Assembly (NCBI GenBank): GCA_052326585.1
Contig: JBKQLU010000044.1
Coordinates: forward strand, 9,299-73,298
Source of the DNA: Desulfobaccales bacterium
GTDB lineage: Bacteria > Desulfobacterota > Desulfobaccia > Desulfobaccales > 0-14-0-80-60-11
Length of the DNA: 64,000 nucleotides
Direction: 5' to 3'
Shown here: one piece after another, positions 11,778 through 54,885 of the stretch
Layout of the letters: the number at the start of each line of letters is the position of its first letter
How positions within the stretch are numbered: the first letter of the stretch is position 1
Program-made: the position numbers and the translations under genes
The notes under the pieces: model-generated
Database searches by the model: none
Told to the model about the DNA's origin: nothing
The model's input: only the letters and a program-made list of their open reading frames with translations

Positions 11778-12096
11778 AAAGCCCCTGATCGCCTAAGCTG
11801 ATCAGGAGCCATTAGTGTCATCACGGTTCGGGCAGATTATCCTTCGCCCCGGCGGACTCCATCGCCTAATCTGGGGATAATTTAACCCCGGTCCCCAGCC
11901 CGGTCAAGGAAAATGTACCATAATTCACAATCACCCCTCTTTTAGGGTTGACATCCTGGCCCTATTGAAGGAATAATCTATCCTGCGACGGCGATGAAGT
12001 CCGCCTGAACTGTTCGCGGTAGCCCGCGGGCTGATGACTTCTGCTCTCATTTAAGGGGCAGAAGTTTTTTTATGCTGCTCATGACCGGGAGAAGGT

Positions 12097-22278: not shown

Positions 22279-23730
22279 TTAGAATTCTGCGTGCAGCCGC
22301 AGGCCAAAGACCGATACCGGACCACGATCCTGGTTGTAAGCCGGGTTGATAATCAACTGGTAGTCCGCGGTGATGTTCAGTGTGCCGTTGCCTGTTCCTG
22401 CATGTACCAATGTTAGCGGCGAGGCGAATTTGAGCACGGCGATATTGTAATACGTTTCGAATACTAGTTCAGGTGAGGCATGCGTCAATTCGCCGTCGCC
22501 GATAATCCCGCCGAGACCACCGGCTCCGAAATATTGCCTGGCCGGGTTCGAAATTTGGTTGACTGCAAATGCCAACCCAACGTTATCATCGGGGCGGCAC
22601 CAGTGAGATCCTTTCAACGACAACCCACCCGAAACAGAGACGTTTACGTCGGTGAAGTCGACCTCCTCCACGCCGCCCTGGCACCAGCCTCCCCGGAGGA
22701 ACATACCAAGATCGGGAACAAGTTGCTGTTCGAGATTAAACCCAATACCGTATTTGGTGCGAAATCTGCGCACCGCTTCGACATCGGGCGTCAGGCCGGT
22801 TTCGCCACCCCAAGCTAGCGCATCGTTATAAGAGGCAAGATTGCCACCAGTCAGGAAATACAGGACCTTGAACTTGCCGGGCTGATCCCATAGTGTATGC
22901 CTCTCTTCTAATTCCGCACAGAACTGCCCTTGCGAGAAACCCCTGGTGCTGAGATGTATGCTGTTCGGGGTGCTCGACATGTCGAACAGACCGACCCTGG
23001 CGGTCCACCAATCCTGTTGCCATTCGGCCGCGGCTCCGTAGGTGAAGCCCCAGGCGTCCGCCGCATAGTCGAAGGCACCCAGGTCGACGATCGTCCAGTT
23101 GAGGAAGTCGCCGCGAGGATCGTGGGCATATTTGTTGGTATCGAAGATGTCGACCACGGAGAACTTACCAATGGTCATCACCAGATGGTTGGCGGTCTGG
23201 GTGCCACCCAAGACATTCGCATCAGGGTCAACTTTTTCAGTCTCGCCGCTCAAATTGATCGTCTGACGGAAGAAGGCCCGGTCCAATCTGAAGTACGGAG
23301 TGGTTCTGCCGAGCTTGTAGGCTTCGCCGCTGGGGTATCCCGCCACCCCGAAAGTGTCGCTTAGACCGAAGCCCTGGTCCATAGTTGGATTGGCCCAGAG
23401 TTCGGCGCCCTGCCACGGGCGTAACCCGAGATAGGCCGTTATATCAGTAGTCTCCCTGCCATTGGCTTTAGGATAAAGGCTATGCGGCCCTACTTTAAAA
23501 TAGGGGGAATAGAATGCCGGCTGCAATTCCCAGGTGACCGTGGACTGACCGTGTATGGCCCAGATCTCCGGCACCACTTGCTCGGCTTCTTTAGAAGTGA
23601 CTGGTGTGCCTTGGGGTGATGGCGTCGGGCTAGTCATTTGAGCATGGCATAACCACGGACAGAGAAGGCTGGCGGCCGCTACAACGCCTATCAAGAACAT
23701 TGCCGCTCTTCTGCAATGTATGAAACTCAT
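22279..23730 (-). CDS. Outer-membrane porin, OprB (carbohydrate-selective porin) family
   Basis: 483 aa with a signal peptide and a C-terminal ...GLRLHAEF. Blocks such as GDFLNWTIVDLGAFDYAADAWGFTYGAAAEWQQDWWTARVGLFDMS resemble OprB-family porins. Confidence 0.6.
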   Translation of the reverse strand: MSFIHCRRAAMFLIGVVAAASLLCPWLCHAQMTSPTPSPQGTPVTSKEAEQVVPEIWAIHGQSTVTWELQPAFYSPYFKVGPHSLYPKANGRETTDITAYLGLRPWQGAELWANPTMDQGFGLSDTFGVAGYPSGEAYKLGRTTPYFRLDRAFFRQTINLSGETEKVDPDANVLGGTQTANHLVMTIGKFSVVDIFDTNKYAHDPRGDFLNWTIVDLGAFDYAADAWGFTYGAAAEWQQDWWTARVGLFDMSSTPNSIHLSTRGFSQGQFCAELEERHTLWDQPGKFKVLYFLTGGNLASYNDALAWGGETGLTPDVEAVRRFRTKYGIGFNLEQQLVPDLGMFLRGGWCQGGVEEVDFTDVNVSVSGGLSLKGSHWCRPDDNVGLAFAVNQISNPARQYFGAGGLGGIIGDGELTHASPELVFETYYNIAVLKFASPLTLVHAGTGNGTLNITADYQLIINPAYNQDRGPVSVFGLRLHAEF

Positions 23731-23831
23731 GTTTCCCCCCTTTTAGATGGACGGCCAAAAAAAGGCCACGGAAACCCTGTAAATTCACTTCAAGCGATTT
23801 TGGTCCTATTTTTATCTCATCGGAGCTGCTA

Positions 23832-23894: not shown

Positions 23895-24056
23895 ATGTGC
23901 TGTAACAACAAAGATAAACATGAGCACGAACACGCCCATGGGGTCGAGACCCATGCCCACGACGGCCACGAGCATAGGCATGAGGCCATCGTCCATAGCC
24001 ATGAGCATACCCACGACGAGGGCCATCACAGCCACGAGCATAAGTGCTGCCAATAA
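23895..24056 (+). CDS. 53-aa histidine/cysteine-rich metal-binding peptide (Hpn-like)
   Basis: My own translation gives MCCNNKDKHEHEHAHGVETHAHDGHEHRHEAIVHSHEHTHDEGHHSHEHKCCQ*. It has 21 His and a CC pair at each end. Strong RBS (AAAAGGAGGTGATACCGT-ATG), a consensus promoter upstream and a terminator immediately downstream. It is below the 60-aa cut-off of the ORF track. Confidence 0.7.
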   Translation: MCCNNKDKHEHEHAHGVETHAHDGHEHRHEAIVHSHEHTHDEGHHSHEHKCCQ

Positions 24057-24057
24057 C

Positions 24058-24146
24058 GGAAAGCCACGGGTCCGCGGAAAATTAGGCCACGAAGGCTTTA
24101 TCTGGTCTGAAGACCGGAGGAGCGTTCGTGGCTTTCCCTTTTTTCT
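24058..24146 (+). terminator. Long two-tier hairpin plus U-tract terminator. It belongs to the GCCAYGAAGG...CRTGGCTTT element family.
   Basis: The outer stem GGAAAGCCACG/CGTGGCTTTCC encloses GGCCACGAAGG and an inner GGTC-tgaa-GACC hairpin, followed by CTTTTTTC. Confidence 0.65.
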
Positions 24147-28647: not shown

Positions 28648-28946
28648 CAAAAAAAAACCTTGGGCCCGTGTGGACCCAAGGATTGCACCCAGTTTGCTTG
28701 ATCCCTGGCTGGCTGAGGAGATTTGCCATCTCTCCGCAGCCACTGCCCTCCCAATGCCTCGTTGGGGCAACAGTTCAGCTTACAGGCAGGTCTTCTGATT
28801 CCCGGATCTTTCTATTCCCTGCGCCTTCCCGTCCTCTTAAGAAAGGATAGTGGCTCTGTGCAGGTTTCGTCCCCGGTTACAGCGGCGGGACCACGCCGGT
28901 TTTACACCGGCTTCCCTTTTAAGCCCCGAAGGGCGCCTGTATGCTC
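28648..28946 (-). promoter_or_regulatory. Cobalamin (AdoCbl) riboswitch with terminator expression platform
   Basis: The minus strand reads ...AAAAGGGAAGCCGGTGTAAAACCGGCGTGGTCCCGCCGCTGTAACCGGGGACGAAA...GAGCCACTATCC...GGACGGGAAGGCGC...AATCAGAAGACCTGCCTG (B12 box). It is followed by CCTTGGGTCCACACGGGCCCAAGG plus T9 (28648-28681). Confidence 0.85.
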
Positions 28947-28957
28947 AATTTTATTGC

Positions 28958-29231: not shown

Positions 29232-31463
29232 TCAAAAGTGGGCGGTCAGCGCGAGACGGAAAGTGCGCGGCTCTGCTGCATGATACGTGAAGTCGTTGAC
29301 GCCTTGGGCCGGCTCCCCCGGCAGCCGGTTGGCGTAATAGTAGGTGATATCGGGGGCTTTCGTATTGAGAAGGTTAAAGATATCTCCTTCGATCTCCCAG
29401 GTCGGGTTGATTTTGTAAATGAGGTTAAAGTAGAGCAGAGTGGTATTGCGGGACCATTCGCTGCCGTCCTGGACGAGAGGGCGGGGGCCGAAATAGCGCA
29501 ACCGCAGGGTGGAGGTAAAACCGTAGATATCGTGCACCGTGACTCCCGAGTTGATAATCATGCCCGCGGCCTCGGGGACGTAACCTCCTCCGACGGGGTG
29601 TCCGCGGTAAAATGCCTGGGATTGGGCAAAATCGGCATCGATCGTCAGCCACTTCGTCGGTGTGTAATAGTTCGCCCACTCTACGCCATAGCGGCGACTG
29701 GGGCCAGTCGCTTCGGTCGTTCCCGTATCTCCGTCGAACACCAGTTCGGAATCGAGGTCGAGCACCCAACACGTCACCGTGCTTTGCAGGTTCGGGATGG
29801 CAAGCGTGCGCACGCCGACCTCGCCTCCTTGCGAGCGCGGCAGCGGCTTGGCCCTGCTCAGCTGGAGGCCGGTGGTCGGATCGAGGGTGGTGTTCGCGCC
29901 GCGCGCGTCGTTGGAGTGGAAGCCTTGGCCGGCGTTGAGATAGAACTCCGTCTGGTCCCAGGGGCCGAAGATCGCGGAAAGTTTCGGCTCCGGGACCGTG
30001 GCCAAGACAGTGCCGCTATTGTTGGAAAGGTAGGTTTCGTTACGCATCATGTAGAAGTCCTGGCGATAGCCCGCAACGGTGCGAAACCACGGAAGCCATT
30101 GTATCTTGTTCTCGAAGTAGGGCGCGGCGCTGGGTTCCTCAACATTGTCGACCCGGACGACGCTGATCACCTCGCGGTTCATGGTGTGAAAAAGACCGTC
30201 GTGGATTATGTCGTCGCGAATGTCGAGCCCGAGGGTGTTTTGCATGGGAAAGTTGCCCCAATTGCCGAACCAGGTGCGGGTGGCTTTGAGTCCCTGCACC
30301 CAGCGGGTGTCCCTTTGCTCGAACTGGTCCCCATGGACAGGATCATTCAAGAAAAAGGTGAAATCATTCCAGAGACCCATATTGTAATAATAAGCATATG
30401 CCATGATTTTAGTCGCGGAGTTATTACCGGTCTGGTGCCATTCACCCTCCAGGGTATAGCGGTCCGTAAAACCTCCGTCCGTCGGGGAGAGGTTTCCGAA
30501 ACGCGAGACGAGCCCTTCCGCCACGGCGCGCTCAGGTATCTGGTTGGTCGCAGTCCACGTGGGGGCGTTATAGCCCATGGCGGTCACGCTAAAGCCCTCG
30601 CTCTTGGTCCCTTGGCTATAGGTCATTACTCCATTGTACTTCATATAATTTTCGGGGGTTACCCATGGCCCGTCGGTGTGCACTGTTTCCAGGGCAAAGA
30701 GGAGGTTGCCCGGCCCGAGCTTCACCGAGTCGGCCAGCAACCCCCGCTCGTAGTTCCAGCTTCCGTATTCGACTTTGGCAATCCCGGTGGGAAGCGTCTT
30801 AAAGTAGTCAATGAATACAGAGCCCGCGGAGCCGAAGTCGCCCACGTTTGCGAAGTAGGGTCCTTTCTGGTAGTCAATTTTCTGGATCAATTCAGGGATG
30901 AGAAAGTTGAGATCCGTGTACCCTTGTCCATGGGCGTTCGTGGGCAGGTTGATGGGAACCCCGTTGACAAAGACGGCTATGTCGGTGCCGTGGTCGAGGT
31001 TAAAGCCCCGCAGGAAGTACTGGTTGGCCTTGCCGTCAGCGCTATGCTGGGTGACGATGAGTCCGGGCACGGTCTCGAGGACCTCTCCGGGCCGCGAGAT
31101 GGGGAGCTGTTGTATTTCTTTGGAGCCAACCGTGCCCTGCGATGAGCTATCAGCAATGCCGAGCATACTGGTGCTGCGCTCCTCCACCAATATCTCGGGC
31201 AATTGCTCTGTGCCTTTTGGGAGCTGGCCAATTTCATAGGTAAAAGCCCCTGCGGCCGGCGCCCCGCCGGAGGTGCCCGCACCGGACGTTTGGGCTGGGT
31301 TCTTGGGGACCTGGCCCGCCTTAGCGGGAGAGGTCACCGCAGGGACAGTTTGCTCCGACACGTCCCCGGCGCTGGGGGTTCCAGCTTCCTCCGCAGCCCA
31401 GGCACAGGCACTCAGGGCTATCCAAACCATGCAAGTACAAATAAGAGATGCTGCCCTTGCCAT
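29232..31463 (-). CDS. TonB-dependent outer-membrane receptor
   Basis: 743 aa with a signal peptide, a plug region (GEVLETVPGLIVTQHSADGKANQYFLRGFNLDHGTD), a long beta-barrel and a terminal ...RLALTAHF. Confidence 0.85.
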   Translation of the reverse strand: MARAASLICTCMVWIALSACAWAAEEAGTPSAGDVSEQTVPAVTSPAKAGQVPKNPAQTSGAGTSGGAPAAGAFTYEIGQLPKGTEQLPEILVEERSTSMLGIADSSSQGTVGSKEIQQLPISRPGEVLETVPGLIVTQHSADGKANQYFLRGFNLDHGTDIAVFVNGVPINLPTNAHGQGYTDLNFLIPELIQKIDYQKGPYFANVGDFGSAGSVFIDYFKTLPTGIAKVEYGSWNYERGLLADSVKLGPGNLLFALETVHTDGPWVTPENYMKYNGVMTYSQGTKSEGFSVTAMGYNAPTWTATNQIPERAVAEGLVSRFGNLSPTDGGFTDRYTLEGEWHQTGNNSATKIMAYAYYYNMGLWNDFTFFLNDPVHGDQFEQRDTRWVQGLKATRTWFGNWGNFPMQNTLGLDIRDDIIHDGLFHTMNREVISVVRVDNVEEPSAAPYFENKIQWLPWFRTVAGYRQDFYMMRNETYLSNNSGTVLATVPEPKLSAIFGPWDQTEFYLNAGQGFHSNDARGANTTLDPTTGLQLSRAKPLPRSQGGEVGVRTLAIPNLQSTVTCWVLDLDSELVFDGDTGTTEATGPSRRYGVEWANYYTPTKWLTIDADFAQSQAFYRGHPVGGGYVPEAAGMIINSGVTVHDIYGFTSTLRLRYFGPRPLVQDGSEWSRNTTLLYFNLIYKINPTWEIEGDIFNLLNTKAPDITYYYANRLPGEPAQGVNDFTYHAAEPRTFRLALTAHF

Positions 31464-31645
31464 AAATTCCTCCTTTCAGGTCCTTGGAACTCCAGCCACC
31501 CCAGGAAAAGAAAAGCCACGAAAATCAGGCGGCGTTCTGCCGCGGACCTTCGTGGCCACTCAAAACCTGTCTACGATCTTTTCTATTCGGGCAGACTTCC
31601 TGCCCCCCCGACAATTTTTAGTTTACTTAAGCGTCTTTAAGAAGT
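31450..31645 (-). repeat. Tandem repeat unit 1 (proximal). It carries the receptor leader with hairpin plus U-tract, the RBS, the ATG and the first 4-5 codons.
   Basis: Period 196 nt. GCTGCCCTTGCCATAAATTCCTCC recurs at 31450 and 31646. Homology runs to about 31610 in this unit and about 31808 in the other. Confidence 0.85.
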
Positions 31646-31808
31646 GCTGCCCTTGCCATAAATTCCTCCTTCCGGCTCCTGGAACTCAGGCCACCACAGG
31701 AAAAAAAAGCCACGAAAATCAGGCGGCGTTCTGCCGCTGGACCTTCGTGGCCACTGAAAACCTGTTGGCTATCTCTTCTTTGCGGGCGGACTTCGTGCCC
31801 CCCGATAA
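31646..31808 (-). repeat. Tandem repeat unit 2 (distal). It duplicates the leader, RBS and start codon, giving a 10-codon ORF MARAALLKDA*.
   Basis: Aligned by eye with unit 1. It begins at the predicted transcription start. Confidence 0.85.
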
Positions 31809-31817
31809 GTTGCCGGT

Positions 31818-31846
31818 TATATAGCGCCTTACTGAAATGTTGTCAA
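31818..31846 (-). promoter_or_regulatory. Sigma70 promoter of the TonB-dependent receptor (TTGACA, 17 nt, TATATA on the minus strand)
   Basis: Hexamers read directly from the sequence. Confidence 0.55.
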
Positions 31847-31917
31847 GCAATAATTCAGCGGGAAGGGAACCAAGCAATGCATCATTTACACCGGATGGGC
31901 TGGGAAAGCGATTCTGG

Positions 31918-31947
31918 TTGACTTCCGATGCAGGAGAGGGCTATAAT
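31918..31947 (+). promoter_or_regulatory. Sigma70 promoter of exbB-exbD-tonB (TTGACT, 18 nt, TATAAT)
   Basis: Hexamers read directly from the sequence. It is divergent from the receptor promoter. Confidence 0.55.
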
Positions 31948-32012
31948 TTTTGCCATTCAGGGAGATTGAACTCCCTGAAGATCGAACTAACCAGCGCAAT
32001 AAAGTAAATCCA

Positions 32013-32065
32013 AGCCATGAAGGCTCAATGGTCCGGAAGGACCGCAGCCGCATGGCTTTTTTTTT
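32013..32065 (+). terminator. Leader hairpin plus U9 (attenuator-like) immediately upstream of the exbB RBS
   Basis: AGCCATGAAGGCTCAATGGTCCGGAAGGACCGCAGCCGCATGGCT plus TTTTTTTTT, then AGGGAGG and ATG at 32077. Confidence 0.55.
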
Positions 32066-32076
32066 AGGGAGGATAC

Positions 32077-32772
32077 ATGGACATAACCAAGGCCCTGCTC
32101 AATTTGGCCCAGGGCGGGAGCGCGTGGGTGCTGTGGCTGCTCCTGGGATTGAGCGTCGCCTCAGTGGCGATCATCATCGACAAGGCCCTGACCTTTTACC
32201 GCTGCCGCTTTGACCCGGACCGCTTTGTGGCCGAGATCGAACCTGCTTTCAAGCAAGGCGACTGGCCCCAGGCCGTTTCCCGCTGCCAGGCTGAATCCGG
32301 TTTGGAAGGCCGGGTGCTATTGGCGGGCCTCAACGAGATTCCTTGGGGCAAAAGTGCGGTCCAGGACATCATGGAAGGCGAGCGGCTCAGGATGGTCCTC
32401 TTCCTGGAGCGGCGCTTGAGCTTCCTGGGCACCCTGGGAGCCAACGCCCCCTTCATCGGCCTATTCGGCACCGTCCTGGGCATCATCCATGCCTTCAAGG
32501 ACCTGTCCCTCACCGAGGGGGGCGGCGGCCCGGCAGTGATGGCCGGCATCGCCGAGGCACTGGTAGCCACTGCGGTGGGTCTCCTGGTGGCCATCCCCGC
32601 GGTGATGATGTACAACTTCTTTCATCGCCGCCTGCACGTGGTCCAGGAGCGTTCCCGGTTTCTCGAGCAGTTGCTCCTGGCCCATCTGGACCGTGACGCC
32701 GGGACCGGGGAGATTGCCCTCCCGGATACCGAACAGTCCAAACCTGCCGGCCAGGCCGGGAAGCTGGCATGA
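32077..32772 (+). CDS. exbB: MotA/TolQ/ExbB proton-channel protein
   Basis: 231 aa with conserved LGTLGANAPFIGLFGTVLGII and GIAEALVATAVGL blocks. Confidence 0.85.
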   Translation: MDITKALLNLAQGGSAWVLWLLLGLSVASVAIIIDKALTFYRCRFDPDRFVAEIEPAFKQGDWPQAVSRCQAESGLEGRVLLAGLNEIPWGKSAVQDIMEGERLRMVLFLERRLSFLGTLGANAPFIGLFGTVLGIIHAFKDLSLTEGGGGPAVMAGIAEALVATAVGLLVAIPAVMMYNFFHRRLHVVQERSRFLEQLLLAHLDRDAGTGEIALPDTEQSKPAGQAGKLA

Positions 32773-33164
32773 AAGGCAACATCCACGGGCCCATTACCGA
32801 GATCAACATGACCCCTTTCGTGGACATCGTGCTGGTCATCCTGATCATCTTTATGTTGACGGCCACGGTGATGATGCCCCGCACCTTTGCCATCGCCTTG
32901 CCCAAGGCCAGCCAGGCCGATAAGCTGGAGAGCATCCCCATTATCATCAGCATAGACCGGGAGGGGCATATAGCCGTGAATGGGATCAAACTGGCCCAGG
33001 ACAGCGACTTCGACAAGGTCTTCGAGGCTCAAAAACAGGGCAAGGAGCCCCAGGCGATCATCGCGGCGGACACCGATACCCATCATGGCCGGCTGATTGA
33101 AGTGATCGACCGCCTCCGGGGCCTGAAGGTGCAGCGCATCGGCATCGAAGTTGATCAAAAGTAG
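32769..33164 (+). CDS. exbD: Biopolymer transport protein ExbD/TolR
   Basis: 131 aa: ...INMTPFVDIVLVILIIFM... The start overlaps the exbB stop. Confidence 0.85.
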   Translation: MKGNIHGPITEINMTPFVDIVLVILIIFMLTATVMMPRTFAIALPKASQADKLESIPIIISIDREGHIAVNGIKLAQDSDFDKVFEAQKQGKEPQAIIAADTDTHHGRLIEVIDRLRGLKVQRIGIEVDQK

Positions 33165-33167
33165 CGC

Positions 33168-34007
33168 ATGGGAGAACGCTTTCAGTGTTGGGGTGATGTC
33201 TGGCAAGACCGGGGCGCCTGGTTTTGGGCAGTGCTGGCTTCTCTGCTGGCGCATGGCCTGTTCGTAGCGGTCGTGGTGGCAGTCTTTCAGGGAGGACCAT
33301 CAAGGCCGCGAATTGTGGTGCCGGTGGAAGCCGTTACCCTGGTGCCCTTCAACCCGGGACCAGCCGGAGGTGGCGGAGGCCGGCCCGCCCCGGTGGCCAA
33401 GCCCGAGGCCGCCGCGCTCAAGCCGGCGCCCCCGAAACCCCAGGCCAAACTCTTCAAGCCTCCCAAGATCAAGCGGGTTCCGCCGCCACCGTTGGAACCC
33501 AGCGCCGCGCCGGTAATCCCTATACCGGCGCCGCCAGCCGCGAGCACCAGAGCTAAATCTGCGCAAACCGCAATCACTAGCAGCAGGGCCATTGGCCCAG
33601 GGGTCCCGGGCGGCCTCCCGGGTACGGGCGAAGGGGGCCAGGGCGGAGGACTGGGAACCGGGACCGGCGGTGGTATTGGCCAAGGTGAGGGGCCTGGCTC
33701 AGGGGCCGGTTCGGCGCTCCAAGGCTATCTCAAAGAGGTTCGCCGGCTGTTGGAAGAGCAGAAGGAGTATCCTCTCATGGCCCGTCGCCGCCAGCTCCAA
33801 GGAGTAGTGGTGCTGGAGTTTACCATCGCCGCCGGCGGCGAGATCGAATCCTATGGGGTCAGCCGCTCCTCGGGGCAAGACCTGCTGGATGAGGCCGCCA
33901 AAGAAACCATTCGCAGAGTCGGCCACTTTCCCCCATTTCCCGCCAACCTGAACCGTCGGAAGTTGTCCATCGCAGTCCCCCTGGCGTTCCACTTACGTAC
34001 TGATTAG
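33168..34007 (+). CDS. tonB: TonB family energy-transducer protein
   Basis: N-terminal TM segment, a Pro-rich spacer (KPEAAALKPAPPKPQAKLFKPPKIKRVPPPP), and a TonB_C-like end (YPLMARRRQLQGVVVLEFTI...). Confidence 0.85.
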   Translation: MGERFQCWGDVWQDRGAWFWAVLASLLAHGLFVAVVVAVFQGGPSRPRIVVPVEAVTLVPFNPGPAGGGGGRPAPVAKPEAAALKPAPPKPQAKLFKPPKIKRVPPPPLEPSAAPVIPIPAPPAASTRAKSAQTAITSSRAIGPGVPGGLPGTGEGGQGGGLGTGTGGGIGQGEGPGSGAGSALQGYLKEVRRLLEEQKEYPLMARRRQLQGVVVLEFTIAAGGEIESYGVSRSSGQDLLDEAAKETIRRVGHFPPFPANLNRRKLSIAVPLAFHLRTD

Positions 34008-43480: not shown

Positions 43481-43577
43481 CCCTGAAAAAGCCAAACCCG
43501 TCGCGAGGCGGGGACGGAAAGCCACGGGTCTCAGAAAGATAGCCGGGTTGCCTGGAAAAGGGGAGTCCGGTTTTTTT
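43481..43577 (+). promoter_or_regulatory. c-di-GMP-I (GEMM-I) riboswitch, copy 1, with overlapping terminator
   Basis: GCCAAACCCGTC-GCGA-GGCGGGGACGGAAAGCCACGGGTCTC...AGCCGGGTTGCC. The 3' arm CCGGGTT can instead pair with AGTCCGG, which is followed by T7. Confidence 0.8.
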
Positions 43578-54663: not shown

Positions 54664-54787
54664 CTTCCATGATCCTTGCCAGTTAGCTTAGCAAGCCTGT
54701 GGCAGATCTTTTATGATGAGCCTAATTTTTTGTTAAAATTTCATTCAAGAGGTTGACGGATTTAAACCTCATGCATATTGTAAATAT
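54664..54787 (+). repeat. Conserved upstream region of the riboswitch loci, copy 2
   Basis: CCTTGCCAGTTAGCTTAGCAAGCCTGTGGCAGATCTTTTATGATGAGC...TTGACG, 17 nt, TATTGT. Aligns with 43355-43480. Confidence 0.6.
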
Positions 54788-54885
54788 ACCGCAAGGCCAA
54801 ACCTGCCGCGAGGTAGGGGCGGAAAGCCACGGGTCTCCGATTAAAGAGATAGCCGGGTTGCCGGGAGGCAATCCGGTTTTTTTTT
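54788..54885 (+). promoter_or_regulatory. c-di-GMP-I (GEMM-I) riboswitch, copy 2, with overlapping terminator
   Basis: GGCCAAACCTGCC-GCGA-GGTAGGGGCGGAAAGCCACGGGTCTC...AGCCGGGTTGCC. CCGGGTTGCC (54853-62) can instead pair with GGCAATCCGG (54867-76), followed by T9. Confidence 0.8.

Follow-up and report, generated by a model that had tools for sequence, protein, structure and literature searches.

Nickel and cobalt import has to be kept within tight limits; DNA-binding repressors (NikR and others), cobalamin riboswitches in the case of cobalt, and the NiCo riboswitch in the case of efflux are known to exert such control. Here we analyze the leader of a TonB-dependent receptor gene in a 64,000-nucleotide (nt) stretch of DNA from a Desulfobaccales bacterium (GenBank assembly GCA_052326585.1, contig JBKQLU010000044.1, positions 9,299 to 73,298; hereafter the window, numbered from its first letter). 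The block from the transcript start to codon 5 of this gene occurs twice in tandem. Each unit contains a small hairpin (H1), a linker and a long hairpin that runs into a U-tract, and the 5' arm of the long hairpin can alternatively fold into a second small hairpin (H2) that resembles H1. The element appears to be an undescribed, widespread leader motif of a nickel/cobalt uptake regulon in Desulfobacterota-type bacteria. We consider it likely that it is an off-by-default attenuator, in which default termination would be relieved by a factor that stabilizes H2, and that two such gates stand in series before the receptor.

The closest described architecture is that of the ANTAR targets (the EutV, NasR and AmiR leaders), which consist of two small, similar hairpins whose loops have conserved letters. 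Since the second of them shares its sequence with the 5' arm of an intrinsic terminator, binding of a protein dimer prevents termination, and several gates per locus are possible. The motif likewise has two hairpins of at least 3 base pairs (bp), the second overlapping the terminator 5' arm (H1 is found in 55 of 92 leaders), and its A-GCC-ACGAA-GGC-U segment resembles the ANTAR 13-mer AGCAANGRRGCUY (PMC3369931). The loops differ, however: the ANTAR hexaloop is marked by A1 and G4 (PMC3369931), whereas the motif mostly has a pentaloop, A-N-G-A-A, marked by A1 and G3. The linkers differ as well, since that of ANTAR targets measures 5-12 nt and is length-sensitive (3 or 14 nt impair it), whereas the unconserved linker between H1 and the long hairpin of the motif has a median of about 31-36 nt and ranges from 0 to 79 nt. 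Most ANTAR regulons have to do with nitrogen, whereas the motif regulon concerns nickel/cobalt uptake; the ANTAR family is not among the recurrent neighbor families of the motif contigs, and no ANTAR gene was seen beside the motif.

In the B. subtilis pyr operon, the leading gene encodes the regulator, an internal terminator behind it has to be bypassed for the transporter or enzyme genes to be expressed, and several attenuators share a binding hairpin across the regulon. The order DUF3842-CooT-[hairpin]-nikMNQO, which accompanies the motif elsewhere, shares this layout: in ten loci described below (L206-L215), though not in the window, an attenuator is directly preceded by the gene for its candidate regulator. 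PyrR binding, however, favors termination by way of an anti-antiterminator, whereas the motif hairpin itself competes with the terminator.

Three kinds of riboswitch also invite comparison. Guanidine-II (mini-ykkC) riboswitches mostly control the translation of efflux and carboxylase genes. They too combine two very similar hairpins with an unconserved linker, and their loop nucleotides start with A-C-G (PMC9481103). Their loops have four nucleotides that dock around guanidine, whereas the loops of the motif have five letters, the second of which is variable, and its second hairpin lies within the terminator; the motif genes are nickel/cobalt importers, and the Rfam mini-ykkC model gave no match in the window leader at E<=10. 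The hydroxymethylpyrimidine pyrophosphate (HMP-PP) riboswitch (thiS motif) is described (PMC6478431) as having its conserved functional nucleotides inside the terminator hairpin with no separate upstream aptamer, which is a likeness; its sequence, ligand and genes are unrelated to those of the motif. Finally, the tandem "pseudo-cooperative" riboswitches (thiamine pyrophosphate (TPP), adenosylcobalamin (AdoCbl) and cyclic di-GMP (c-di-GMP) pairs) have the same layout as the window, with two complete units before one open reading frame (ORF), and those in which each unit has its own expression platform are predicted to respond more sharply (PMC9481103). In the window, our covariance model of the motif (R1, see below) matches at full length at 31700-31805 (61.4 bits, E 9e-8; unit 1) and at 31506-31609 (58.9 bits, E 2e-7; unit 2), and each unit has its own terminator. 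The motif differs in that it is not a validated riboswitch and in that its duplication also copied the ribosome-binding site (RBS) and start codon.

With the NiCo (czcD) riboswitch and the NikR regulon, the motif shares the theme of nickel/cobalt homeostasis. The NiCo riboswitch is a four-way-junction ON switch for efflux genes, whereas the motif genes are uptake genes, and the Rfam NiCo model gave no match in the window leader, in four orthologous loci or in 20 motif loci. NikR is a DNA-binding repressor, and its box is absent at the motif loci checked. The motif works like known attenuation systems and belongs to none of them.

Two complete leader units precede the receptor gene

An earlier note on the window, drawn up by a model from the letters and a list of ORFs, had described a tandem duplication of the receptor leader, and this is borne out: Tandem Repeats Finder called a single array (31442-31803, period 195, 1.9 copies, 87% matches, score 575), and the two units, blocks of about 195 nt on the minus strand, are 88% identical in a pairwise alignment. 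The note had also warned of an assembly artefact. We find the 674-nt stretch comprising the intergenic region and 30 nt per side to be base-identical in four independent NCBI metagenome assemblies, which rules such an artefact out, and the portion present in a Logan assembly agrees as well.

The promoter reported in the note (TTGACA, 17 nt, TATATA; Table 1) is present on the minus strand, and two relatives of the receptor locus, L216 and L217, keep its hexamers and spacing with a different spacer sequence. A consensus promoter scan omitted it, TATATA breaking the scan's rule for position 6. Transcription of the receptor gene is predicted to start near 31811. The small hairpin claimed for each unit is present twice; its description as a GGGCAG..CTGCCC hairpin fits less well than one by its loop, C-(A-N-G-A-A)-G, which is ACGAA in unit 1 and AGGAA in unit 2. 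From the end of H1 to H2 there are 30 nt in both units. H2 in unit 1 is built from the terminator 5' arm, so that H2 and terminator are mutually exclusive.

The long hairpin reads GGCCACGAAGGUCC-(A)-GCGGC-AGAAC-GCCGC-CUGAUUUUCGUGGC in both units, is followed by U8 or U4CU4, and has a z-score of about -4.8 against shuffled sequences; AAGGAGGAAUUUAUGGCAAGGGCAGC lies downstream of each copy. Its inner stems were picked up by a terminator scan, and in both units a stable G+C-rich hairpin stands directly before a U-tract on the transcribed strand, as expected of an intrinsic terminator and as the note had proposed. We also confirm by translation the 10-codon upstream ORF (uORF) of the promoter-proximal unit, MARAALLKDA*, which is a truncated copy of the start of the receptor signal peptide. 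Leader-peptide attenuation through this uORF can be ruled out: it lies after terminator 1, ending about 16 nt ahead of unit 2 H1, it is a by-product of the duplication, and it is missing from the single-unit relatives L216 and L217. Any role for it would be speculative.

In L216, whose receptor is 73% identical, there is one unit (H1 loop AUGAA) with the same promoter and the same divergent exbB, and the spacer between exbB and the receptor gene measures 420 nt, which is one unit shorter than the 613 nt of the window. L217 (receptor 77% identical) also has a single unit. Since these closest relatives have exactly one unit each, the sequence comparison indicates that the duplication, from transcript start to codon 5, is lineage-specific and recent. 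Direct tandems of the motif are present in L131, L099, L118 and L006 as well.

The two units have diverged unevenly. The small hairpin has 2 substitutions in 21 positions, the linker 8 in 30 and the segment past the terminator 7 in 29, whereas the terminator hairpin (43 positions) and the block from RBS to codon 5 (27 positions) have none. At the background rate (14.8% elsewhere in the unit), the absence of substitutions from 43 aligned nt of terminator hairpin has a probability of about 0.001. The pattern therefore indicates that both unit copies, with both terminators, are maintained and that both hairpins are under purifying selection. The idea of two attenuators in series, put forward in the note, is supported by these two complete copies, each with its own unsubstituted terminator.

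A conserved leader with two look-alike hairpins

We compared the window with orthologous receptor loci in "delta proteobacterium" and Syntrophobacteraceae metagenome-assembled genomes (L006, L007, L009, L030), all of which carry GGCCACGAA[variable inner stem-loop]UUCGUGGCC and a U-run just upstream of the gene. The outer stem sequence is kept in these leaders; the inner stem varies yet stays paired. The covariance model R1 was built from 29 leaders, with L007, L009 and L030 held out, and recovered the held-out leaders at full length (44 bits for L009 and L030, 38 bits for L007; E 1e-4 to 1e-3). The same model found no motif in 76 receptor loci from other phyla.

A metagenome scan with the pattern GCCACGAA-N20-45-UUCGUGGYYUUUU matched at least 120 contigs; the counts that follow in this section and the next refer to the matches listed. 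Among them are 127 distinct hairpins, of which 93 have G at position 9, 100 have G at position 10 and 117 have a pyrimidine at position 11, none of these three positions being demanded by the search pattern.

H1 was defined as a stem of at least 5 bp with an N1-3GAA loop within 95 nt upstream of the big hairpin, and about 60% of leaders (the 55 of 92 mentioned above) contain it, as against 2 for the reverse complement, 3 for downstream sequence and about 4 for shuffled sequences. It is also present in about 10 of 15 leaders that had not been filtered for H1 at any stage. The loops, mostly closed by C-G, include AUGAA (14), AAGAA (9), AGAA (8) and ACGAA (8). In rows picked for having the stem, all seven pairs covary, with changes on both sides. 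Pairing of the H1 loop with the 3' arm of the terminator was considered as the switch and not adopted; the variable loop letter (U 14, A at least 9, C 8, G 3) disfavors it.

The 5' arm of the big hairpin, R-GCC-ACGAA-GGC-Y, forms H2, a stem-loop of the same form as H1. Its pair 1:11 forms in 100% of 88 cases, and the pair -1:12 covaries (G-C 29, A-U 26 and G-U 7, versus 22 non-pairs). The bases at -1 and 12 have other partners in the terminator, which does not require covariation in H2. Changes in copies that the model found outside the search pattern are compensatory: where ACGAA becomes AUGAA, UUCGUGG becomes UUCAUGG, and GCC/GGC is replaced by ACC/GGU. AUGAA is kept, though it is unpaired in the terminator, in both L180 and the exbB leader of the window.

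Association with metal-uptake genes and simpler explanations

Two classes of hairpin are found. In the first, about 90 hairpins (88-95) lie 15-70 nt upstream of an ORF on the same strand; in the second, AT-rich GCCACGAAU... hairpins directly follow ORFs and are ordinary terminators. Chance matches of generic terminators to the pattern thus account for the AT-rich subclass, not for the GCCACGAAGG class. Pfam searches with 65 downstream ORFs returned CbiM/NikM (11), DUF4198 (7), a MetA-type outer-membrane channel (7), NikA-like SBP_bac_5 (4), DUF6802 (4), BtuF-like Peripla_BP_2 (3), FmdE (2), TonB (2) and CooT (1). Clustering of neighboring genes placed CbiM in at least 26 contigs and TonB-dependent receptors in at least 7. 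For the most part, then, the hairpin stands shortly ahead of nickel/cobalt-uptake genes.

No Rfam family (Rfam 15) matched the window receptor leader even at E<=10, and at E<=1 the four orthologous loci gave nothing except cobalamin elements elsewhere in them. Nor did any family match in 20 motif loci (104 kb), which means that no cobalamin or other known riboswitch has the hairpin as its expression platform. The sole match of the window to the cobalamin riboswitch (RF00174) lies downstream of the receptor gene and not in its leader, as the note had said. We found no earlier description of such a motif in the searchable literature. The suggestion in the note that the leader is a conserved structured RNA, possibly a new cis-regulator, and its call for conservation and covariation in other genomes are thus answered in the affirmative by the orthologous leaders, the matched contigs, the covariation in H1 and H2 and the lack of an Rfam match.

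These data bear on two simpler explanations. According to the first, there is no switch: related strong terminators or insulators, or the 3' ends of short leader RNAs, have spread among metal-uptake loci, the duplication is neutral, and control is exerted elsewhere, for example at the promoter. The AT-rich class of ordinary terminators after ORFs shows that such hairpins exist among the matches, several of which are bidirectional terminators between genes; the window itself has a hairpin that serves as an ordinary 3' terminator after a His-rich ORF, the next gene being convergent, and H1, terminator and U-tail together resemble a small RNA. In many operons, however, the transporter gene starts 17-50 nt past the U-tract, which leaves no room for a promoter, and a constitutive strong terminator would keep the genes silent. 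Both A-N-G-A-A and the H2 stem are conserved beyond what a terminator needs, and both duplicated copies appear to be under selection. The motif is also regulon-specific, in that R1 matches in the 64-kb window are confined to the receptor gene, exbB and the His-rich gene; copies restricted to metal-related genes likewise rule out an uptake sequence or a genome-wide repeat of the repetitive extragenic palindromic (REP) type.

According to the second explanation, the inverted repeat GCCACGAA...TTCGTGGC is a DNA operator, bound as double-stranded DNA by a metal-responsive repressor equivalent to NikR. The NikR box of this delta-proteobacterial clade is GTGTTAC-N13/14-GTAACAC (PMC545781). Scans that included reversed half-sites found no such box in 31401-32100 (up to 3 mismatches allowed), in the whole window (up to 2) or in 14 related loci, which leaves room for another repressor, and the outer arms do form a conserved inverted repeat near promoters. 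The arms lie anywhere from about 20 to 45 nt apart, however, with a covarying hairpin in between; the element lies 60-110 nt past the promoter, with a strand-specific U-tract and a fixed orientation to the downstream gene; its stems are rich in G-U pairs, and the H1 stems covary while the asymmetric loop is kept. In the CooT operons, moreover, it stands between genes with no promoter nearby. Based on gene spacing, strand-specific features and H2 covariation, we regard both explanations as disfavored, the absence of a switch as very improbable and a DNA operator as scarcely credible.

CooT-like and DUF3842 genes adjoin the motif

About 18 of the motif contigs among the matches listed (L086-L205, e.g. 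L143 70-867 and L162 1689-2346) carry a gene for a CooT-like protein (CooT, PF10133) of 60-63 amino acids (aa) that starts with MCEANAYL. It is usually preceded by a DUF3842 gene (PF12953), and the usual order is DUF3842, CooT-like, motif, transporter; less commonly, the motif stands ahead of the DUF3842/CooT-like pair. In three contigs (L103, L156, L193), the last codons of the CooT-like gene (...Ile-Leu-Leu-Glu-Glu-Gly) form the H1 hairpin, AUCCUUC-UCGAA-GAAGGAU, so that the conserved C-terminus of the protein and the RNA hairpin overlap.

The association was also approached from the protein side, by fetching ten loci (L206-L215) through four CooT-like proteins, with the RNA not consulted. 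All ten have the order DUF3842, CooT-like, gap, outer-membrane channel or DUF4198, CbiM, PDGLE, CbiQ, ATPase, and a hairpin follows 11 of the 11 CooT-like genes, nine of them found by the model and two, which are diverged copies, by eye. The hairpin begins about 20-30 nt past the CooT-like stop codon, and the next gene starts as little as 19 nt past the U-tract; since they start so close, the transporter genes could be expressed only by read-through of the hairpin. Direct adjacency to a CooT-like gene applies to 13 of 95 hairpins among the matches listed, which fits one regulator locus with a dispersed regulon without proving it. The link to CooT is a strong genomic association. It was absent from the earlier note, as were H2 in the terminator 5' arm and a third copy of the motif, which faces exbB.

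CooT has been described as a 7-kDa all-beta dimer that binds a single nickel for each dimer, with a dissociation constant of 9 nM, via Cys2; what role it has is called unclear, and roughly one in four of the genomes with CooT lacks CO dehydrogenase (PMC6006190). The linked CooT-like proteins keep Met1-Cys2, have a basic stretch, QKRIKARIK, and match PDB entry 6FAN (E 3e-15, TM score 0.91). DUF3842 is represented by more than 6,000 database clusters, has an N-terminal GxGGG motif and is sometimes mislabeled as a short-chain dehydrogenase. Its AlphaFold model (predicted local distance difference test score 59) is too poor for a fold search, and sequence searches against PDB and NCBIfam were uninformative.

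Proposed mechanism and candidate effectors

We propose that transcription begins at the TTGACA/TATATA promoter, and that the nascent RNA would first fold H1, with its A-N-G-A-A loop. The terminator 5' arm would then transiently fold the look-alike H2 (R-GCC-ACGAA-GGC-Y). Unless H2 is held, the 3' arm should invade to give the -31 kcal/mol hairpin with its U-tract, and transcription would stop ahead of the gene. Because H2 alone is worth about -4 kcal/mol against -31 kcal/mol for the terminator, a factor would be needed to hold it, and because the controlled genes are uptake genes, that factor should act when metal is scarce: a trans-acting factor on the A-N-G-A-A hairpin or hairpins may then hold H2, so that RNA polymerase reads through. 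With two gates, as before the receptor gene, read-through would roughly follow the squared probability of a single gate, so that the off state would be tighter and the response steeper, as suggested in the earlier note, whereas the divergent exbB-exbD-tonB operon would have one gate.

The likeliest factor would be a dimeric RNA-binding protein, which would suit the resemblance of the two hairpins, the flexibility of the linker and the layout of the operons; that the effector is a protein at all is quite conceivable, if short of probable. The leading candidate is the CooT-like nickel-binding protein itself. A CooT-family protein would in that case be a nickel-sensing RNA-binding attenuation protein, the apo dimer of which grips H1 and H2 and blocks termination, nickel binding via Cys2 releasing the RNA. 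We offer this assignment as a possibility and hold it to be doubtful.

An alternative, which the earlier note had named beside an antiterminator protein, is a direct riboswitch, in which Ni2+, Co2+ or a small nickel complex binds the RNA and favors the terminator when metal is plentiful, with no protein involved. The metal site might be a bridge that joins A-N-G-A-A loops, or it might be the ACGAAGG/YYUUCGU helix. In that helix U is opposite positions 9 and 10 (GG) in 41 and 29 of 88 cases, so that tandem G-U pairs, a classic kind of metal site in the major groove, are frequent. The conserved nucleotides sit in the basal helix of the terminator and in the hairpin loops, and the apical loop of the terminator is often N-GAA too. 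A riboswitch would also explain why the motif occurs in many contexts, the window included, that have no candidate protein gene nearby, and termination favored by metal is the right direction for uptake genes. Precedents exist in the guanidine-II class with its two similar hairpins (PMC9481103) and in the terminator-embedded aptamer described for the HMP-PP riboswitch (PMC6478431). A terminator of -31 kcal/mol, however, forms unaided, and the covariation speaks for the competing H2 rather than for further tertiary contacts within the terminator. The linker lacks conservation and varies in length from 0 to 79 nt, about 40% of leaders do without H1, a multi-helix junction like those of other metal riboswitches is missing, and the tight CooT/DUF3842 linkage would be a coincidence. 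We consider a direct riboswitch unlikely.

Several observations weigh against a protein-relieved attenuator, and against CooT as its effector. With regard to the RNA, (i) the fixed seed pattern inflates the apparent invariance of GCCACGAA and UUCGUGG; (ii) the H1 pair counts come from rows picked for having the stem, so that the enrichment over controls is the unbiased evidence; (iii) H1 is missing or different in about 40% of leaders, and the dual-hairpin picture is not universal; (iv) given the stability of the terminator, an H2 of 4 bp would have to be stabilized very strongly; and (v) termination and read-through are both deduced from sequence. With regard to the protein, neither tblastn nor a six-frame hidden Markov model search found a CooT-like or DUF3842 gene in the 64-kb window or in the fetched orthologous loci, and L216 has only a DUF3842 fragment after tonB. 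The label "predicted RNA-binding protein" that Joint Genome Institute (JGI) and some NCBI records give to the CooT-like proteins is annotation only. A fold search returned only CooT structures and one weak beta-barrel match, with no RNA-binding relatives; in view of this lack of convincing similarity to known RNA-binding folds, we dropped the CooT fold as evidence of RNA binding. CooT and DUF3842 could simply be co-transcribed nickel-handling proteins.

The receptor, further motif copies and the surrounding locus

Homologues of the receptor occur widely, in some cases as fusions with a HupE/UreJ Ni/Co permease domain. In P0058, P0070, P0072, P0078, P0095 and others (about 53% identity), an N-terminal HupE/UreJ domain (PF04955) precedes the receptor, which is an unusual fusion. 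This domain composition supports nickel or cobalt as the likely substrate of the receptor family.

The third motif copy shares the intergenic region of the receptor leader, heads the divergent exbB-exbD-tonB operon and is also present, facing exbB, in L216. Its H1 is UUCAGGGAG-AUUGAA-CUCCCUGAA (31956-31979), and its big hairpin, AAGCC-AUGAA-GGCU...GGUCC-GGAA-GGACC...AGCCGCAUGGC (32012-32056; fold -41.5 kcal/mol), is followed by U9 (32057-32065), with the exbB ATG downstream at 32077. In L216 (1-58, minus strand), the operon continues into a DUF3842 gene that is truncated where the L216 sequence ends; what comes after tonB in the window is a short ORF and a convergent gene for an MscS-type channel, with no DUF3842.

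A fourth copy (R1 match 24034-24141, 29.8 bits, E 0.03) is the GCCACGAAGG-type hairpin behind the His-rich gene. The product is a His/Glu-rich mini-protein of 53 aa with Cys-Cys at both ends (MCCNNKDKHEHEHAH...HSHEHKCCQ), and the gene has its own strong promoter and RBS. The pair of gene and hairpin recurs in unrelated contigs (L006 62-312; L170 and L175, both on the minus strand), and in L104 (1846-2100) a motif copy stands ahead of a similar His-rich ORF. Judging by its composition, the mini-protein is probably a nickel-binding or nickel-buffering peptide of the same regulon. Beside it lies a 483-aa gene (22279-23730, minus strand), whose product we guess from its N-terminus to be an OprB-type porin and which has no NCBIfam match; OprB porins are among the motif-controlled genes in other contigs. 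Upstream of this gene there is no model match, and only a GGCCACGGAA-like remnant with a U-run is visible by eye at about 23755-23790.

Directly downstream of the receptor gene, the cobalamin riboswitch mentioned above (28768-28955, minus strand, 114 bits) stands at the head of a small ORF and cbiM-N-Q-O. At this locus, B12 controls the cobalt transporter of the inner membrane, and the outer-membrane receptor and ExbBD-TonB are under the new motif. Elsewhere in the window there are two c-di-GMP-I-GGC (GEMM-Ib) riboswitches (43482-43556 and 54787-54866, both on the plus strand), which we take to be of the cyclic GMP-AMP (cGAMP) type typical of Geobacter-like Desulfuromonadales, and a divergent back-to-back pair of fluoride riboswitches (11796-11875, minus strand, and 11981-12050, plus strand) about 100 nt apart.

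Table 1. Coordinates of the receptor leader, the further motif copies and the associated genes in the window
Feature	Position	Strand	Description
Receptor-leader promoter	31818..31846	-	-35 TTGACA (31846-31841), 17-nt spacer, -10 TATATA (31823-31818); read from sequence
Unit 1 H1	31783..31804	-	8 bp, one bulge, loop ACGAA (31796-31792), C-G closed; RNAfold -12.1 kcal/mol
Unit 1 H2 (alternative hairpin)	31740..31752	-	GGCC-ACGAA-GGUC; about -4 kcal/mol alone
Unit 1 intrinsic terminator	31701..31752	-	13+5-bp hairpin (31752-31709), then U8 (31708-31701); -30.8 kcal/mol, z -4.8
Unit 1 RBS and uORF	31627..31671	-	AAGGAGG (31671-31665), ATG at 31659, 10 codons MARAALLKDA* (31659-31627); translation, alignment
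Unit 2 H1	31587..31611	-	Loop AGGAA (31601-31597), C-G closed; RNAfold -15.0 kcal/mol
Unit 2 H2	31545..31557	-	GGCC-ACGAA-GGUC; -3.9 kcal/mol; identical to unit 1 H2
Unit 2 intrinsic terminator	31506..31557	-	Hairpin (31557-31515), then UUUUCUUUU (31514-31506); -32.3 kcal/mol, z -4.9
TonB-dependent receptor gene and RBS	29232..31475	-	AAGGAGG (31475-31469), start 31463, 743 aa, signal peptide MARAASLICTCMVWIALSACAWA; ORF list, Plug domain
Divergent exbB leader promoter	31918..31947	+	TTGACT, 18 nt, TATAAT; consensus scan 11/12
Third motif copy, exbB-exbD-tonB leader	31956..32065	+	R1 match 31957-32065, 35.4 bits, E 0.003
exbB-exbD-tonB operon	32077..34007	+	Pfam MotA_ExbB, ExbD, TonB_C; headed by third copy
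His-rich 53-aa ORF and fourth hairpin	23895..24144	+	ORF 23895-24056; hairpin GCCACGAAGGC...GCGUUCGUGGC (24086-24132), then UUUCCCUUUUUU

Implications

The motif is a candidate for a new class of regulatory RNA with a very small conserved core. The recent duplication provides a natural series of two gates, for which the single-gate relatives are built-in controls when the benefit of a tandem is in question. For annotation, it allows receptors and their ExbBD-TonB partners to be assigned to a nickel/cobalt regulon on regulatory grounds. The association with CooT yields a concrete, unexpected hypothesis for the function of CooT-like proteins and DUF3842. CooT-family proteins have so far been regarded only as nickel chaperones for CO dehydrogenase. 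If the CooT reading is true, PF10133 and the neighboring DUF3842 would gain a function, and the nickel regulon (NikMNQO, receptor, ExbBD-TonB and His-rich peptides) would be controlled at the level of transcription elongation; we know of no earlier metal-responsive protein-RNA attenuation system, and this would be the first. With either kind of effector, the motif would add a further, apparently undescribed layer of control in many uncultured bacteria of the sulfate-reducer and syntroph type, a compact attenuator that would gate outer-membrane receptors, the TonB energizing complex and NikM/CbiM transporters.

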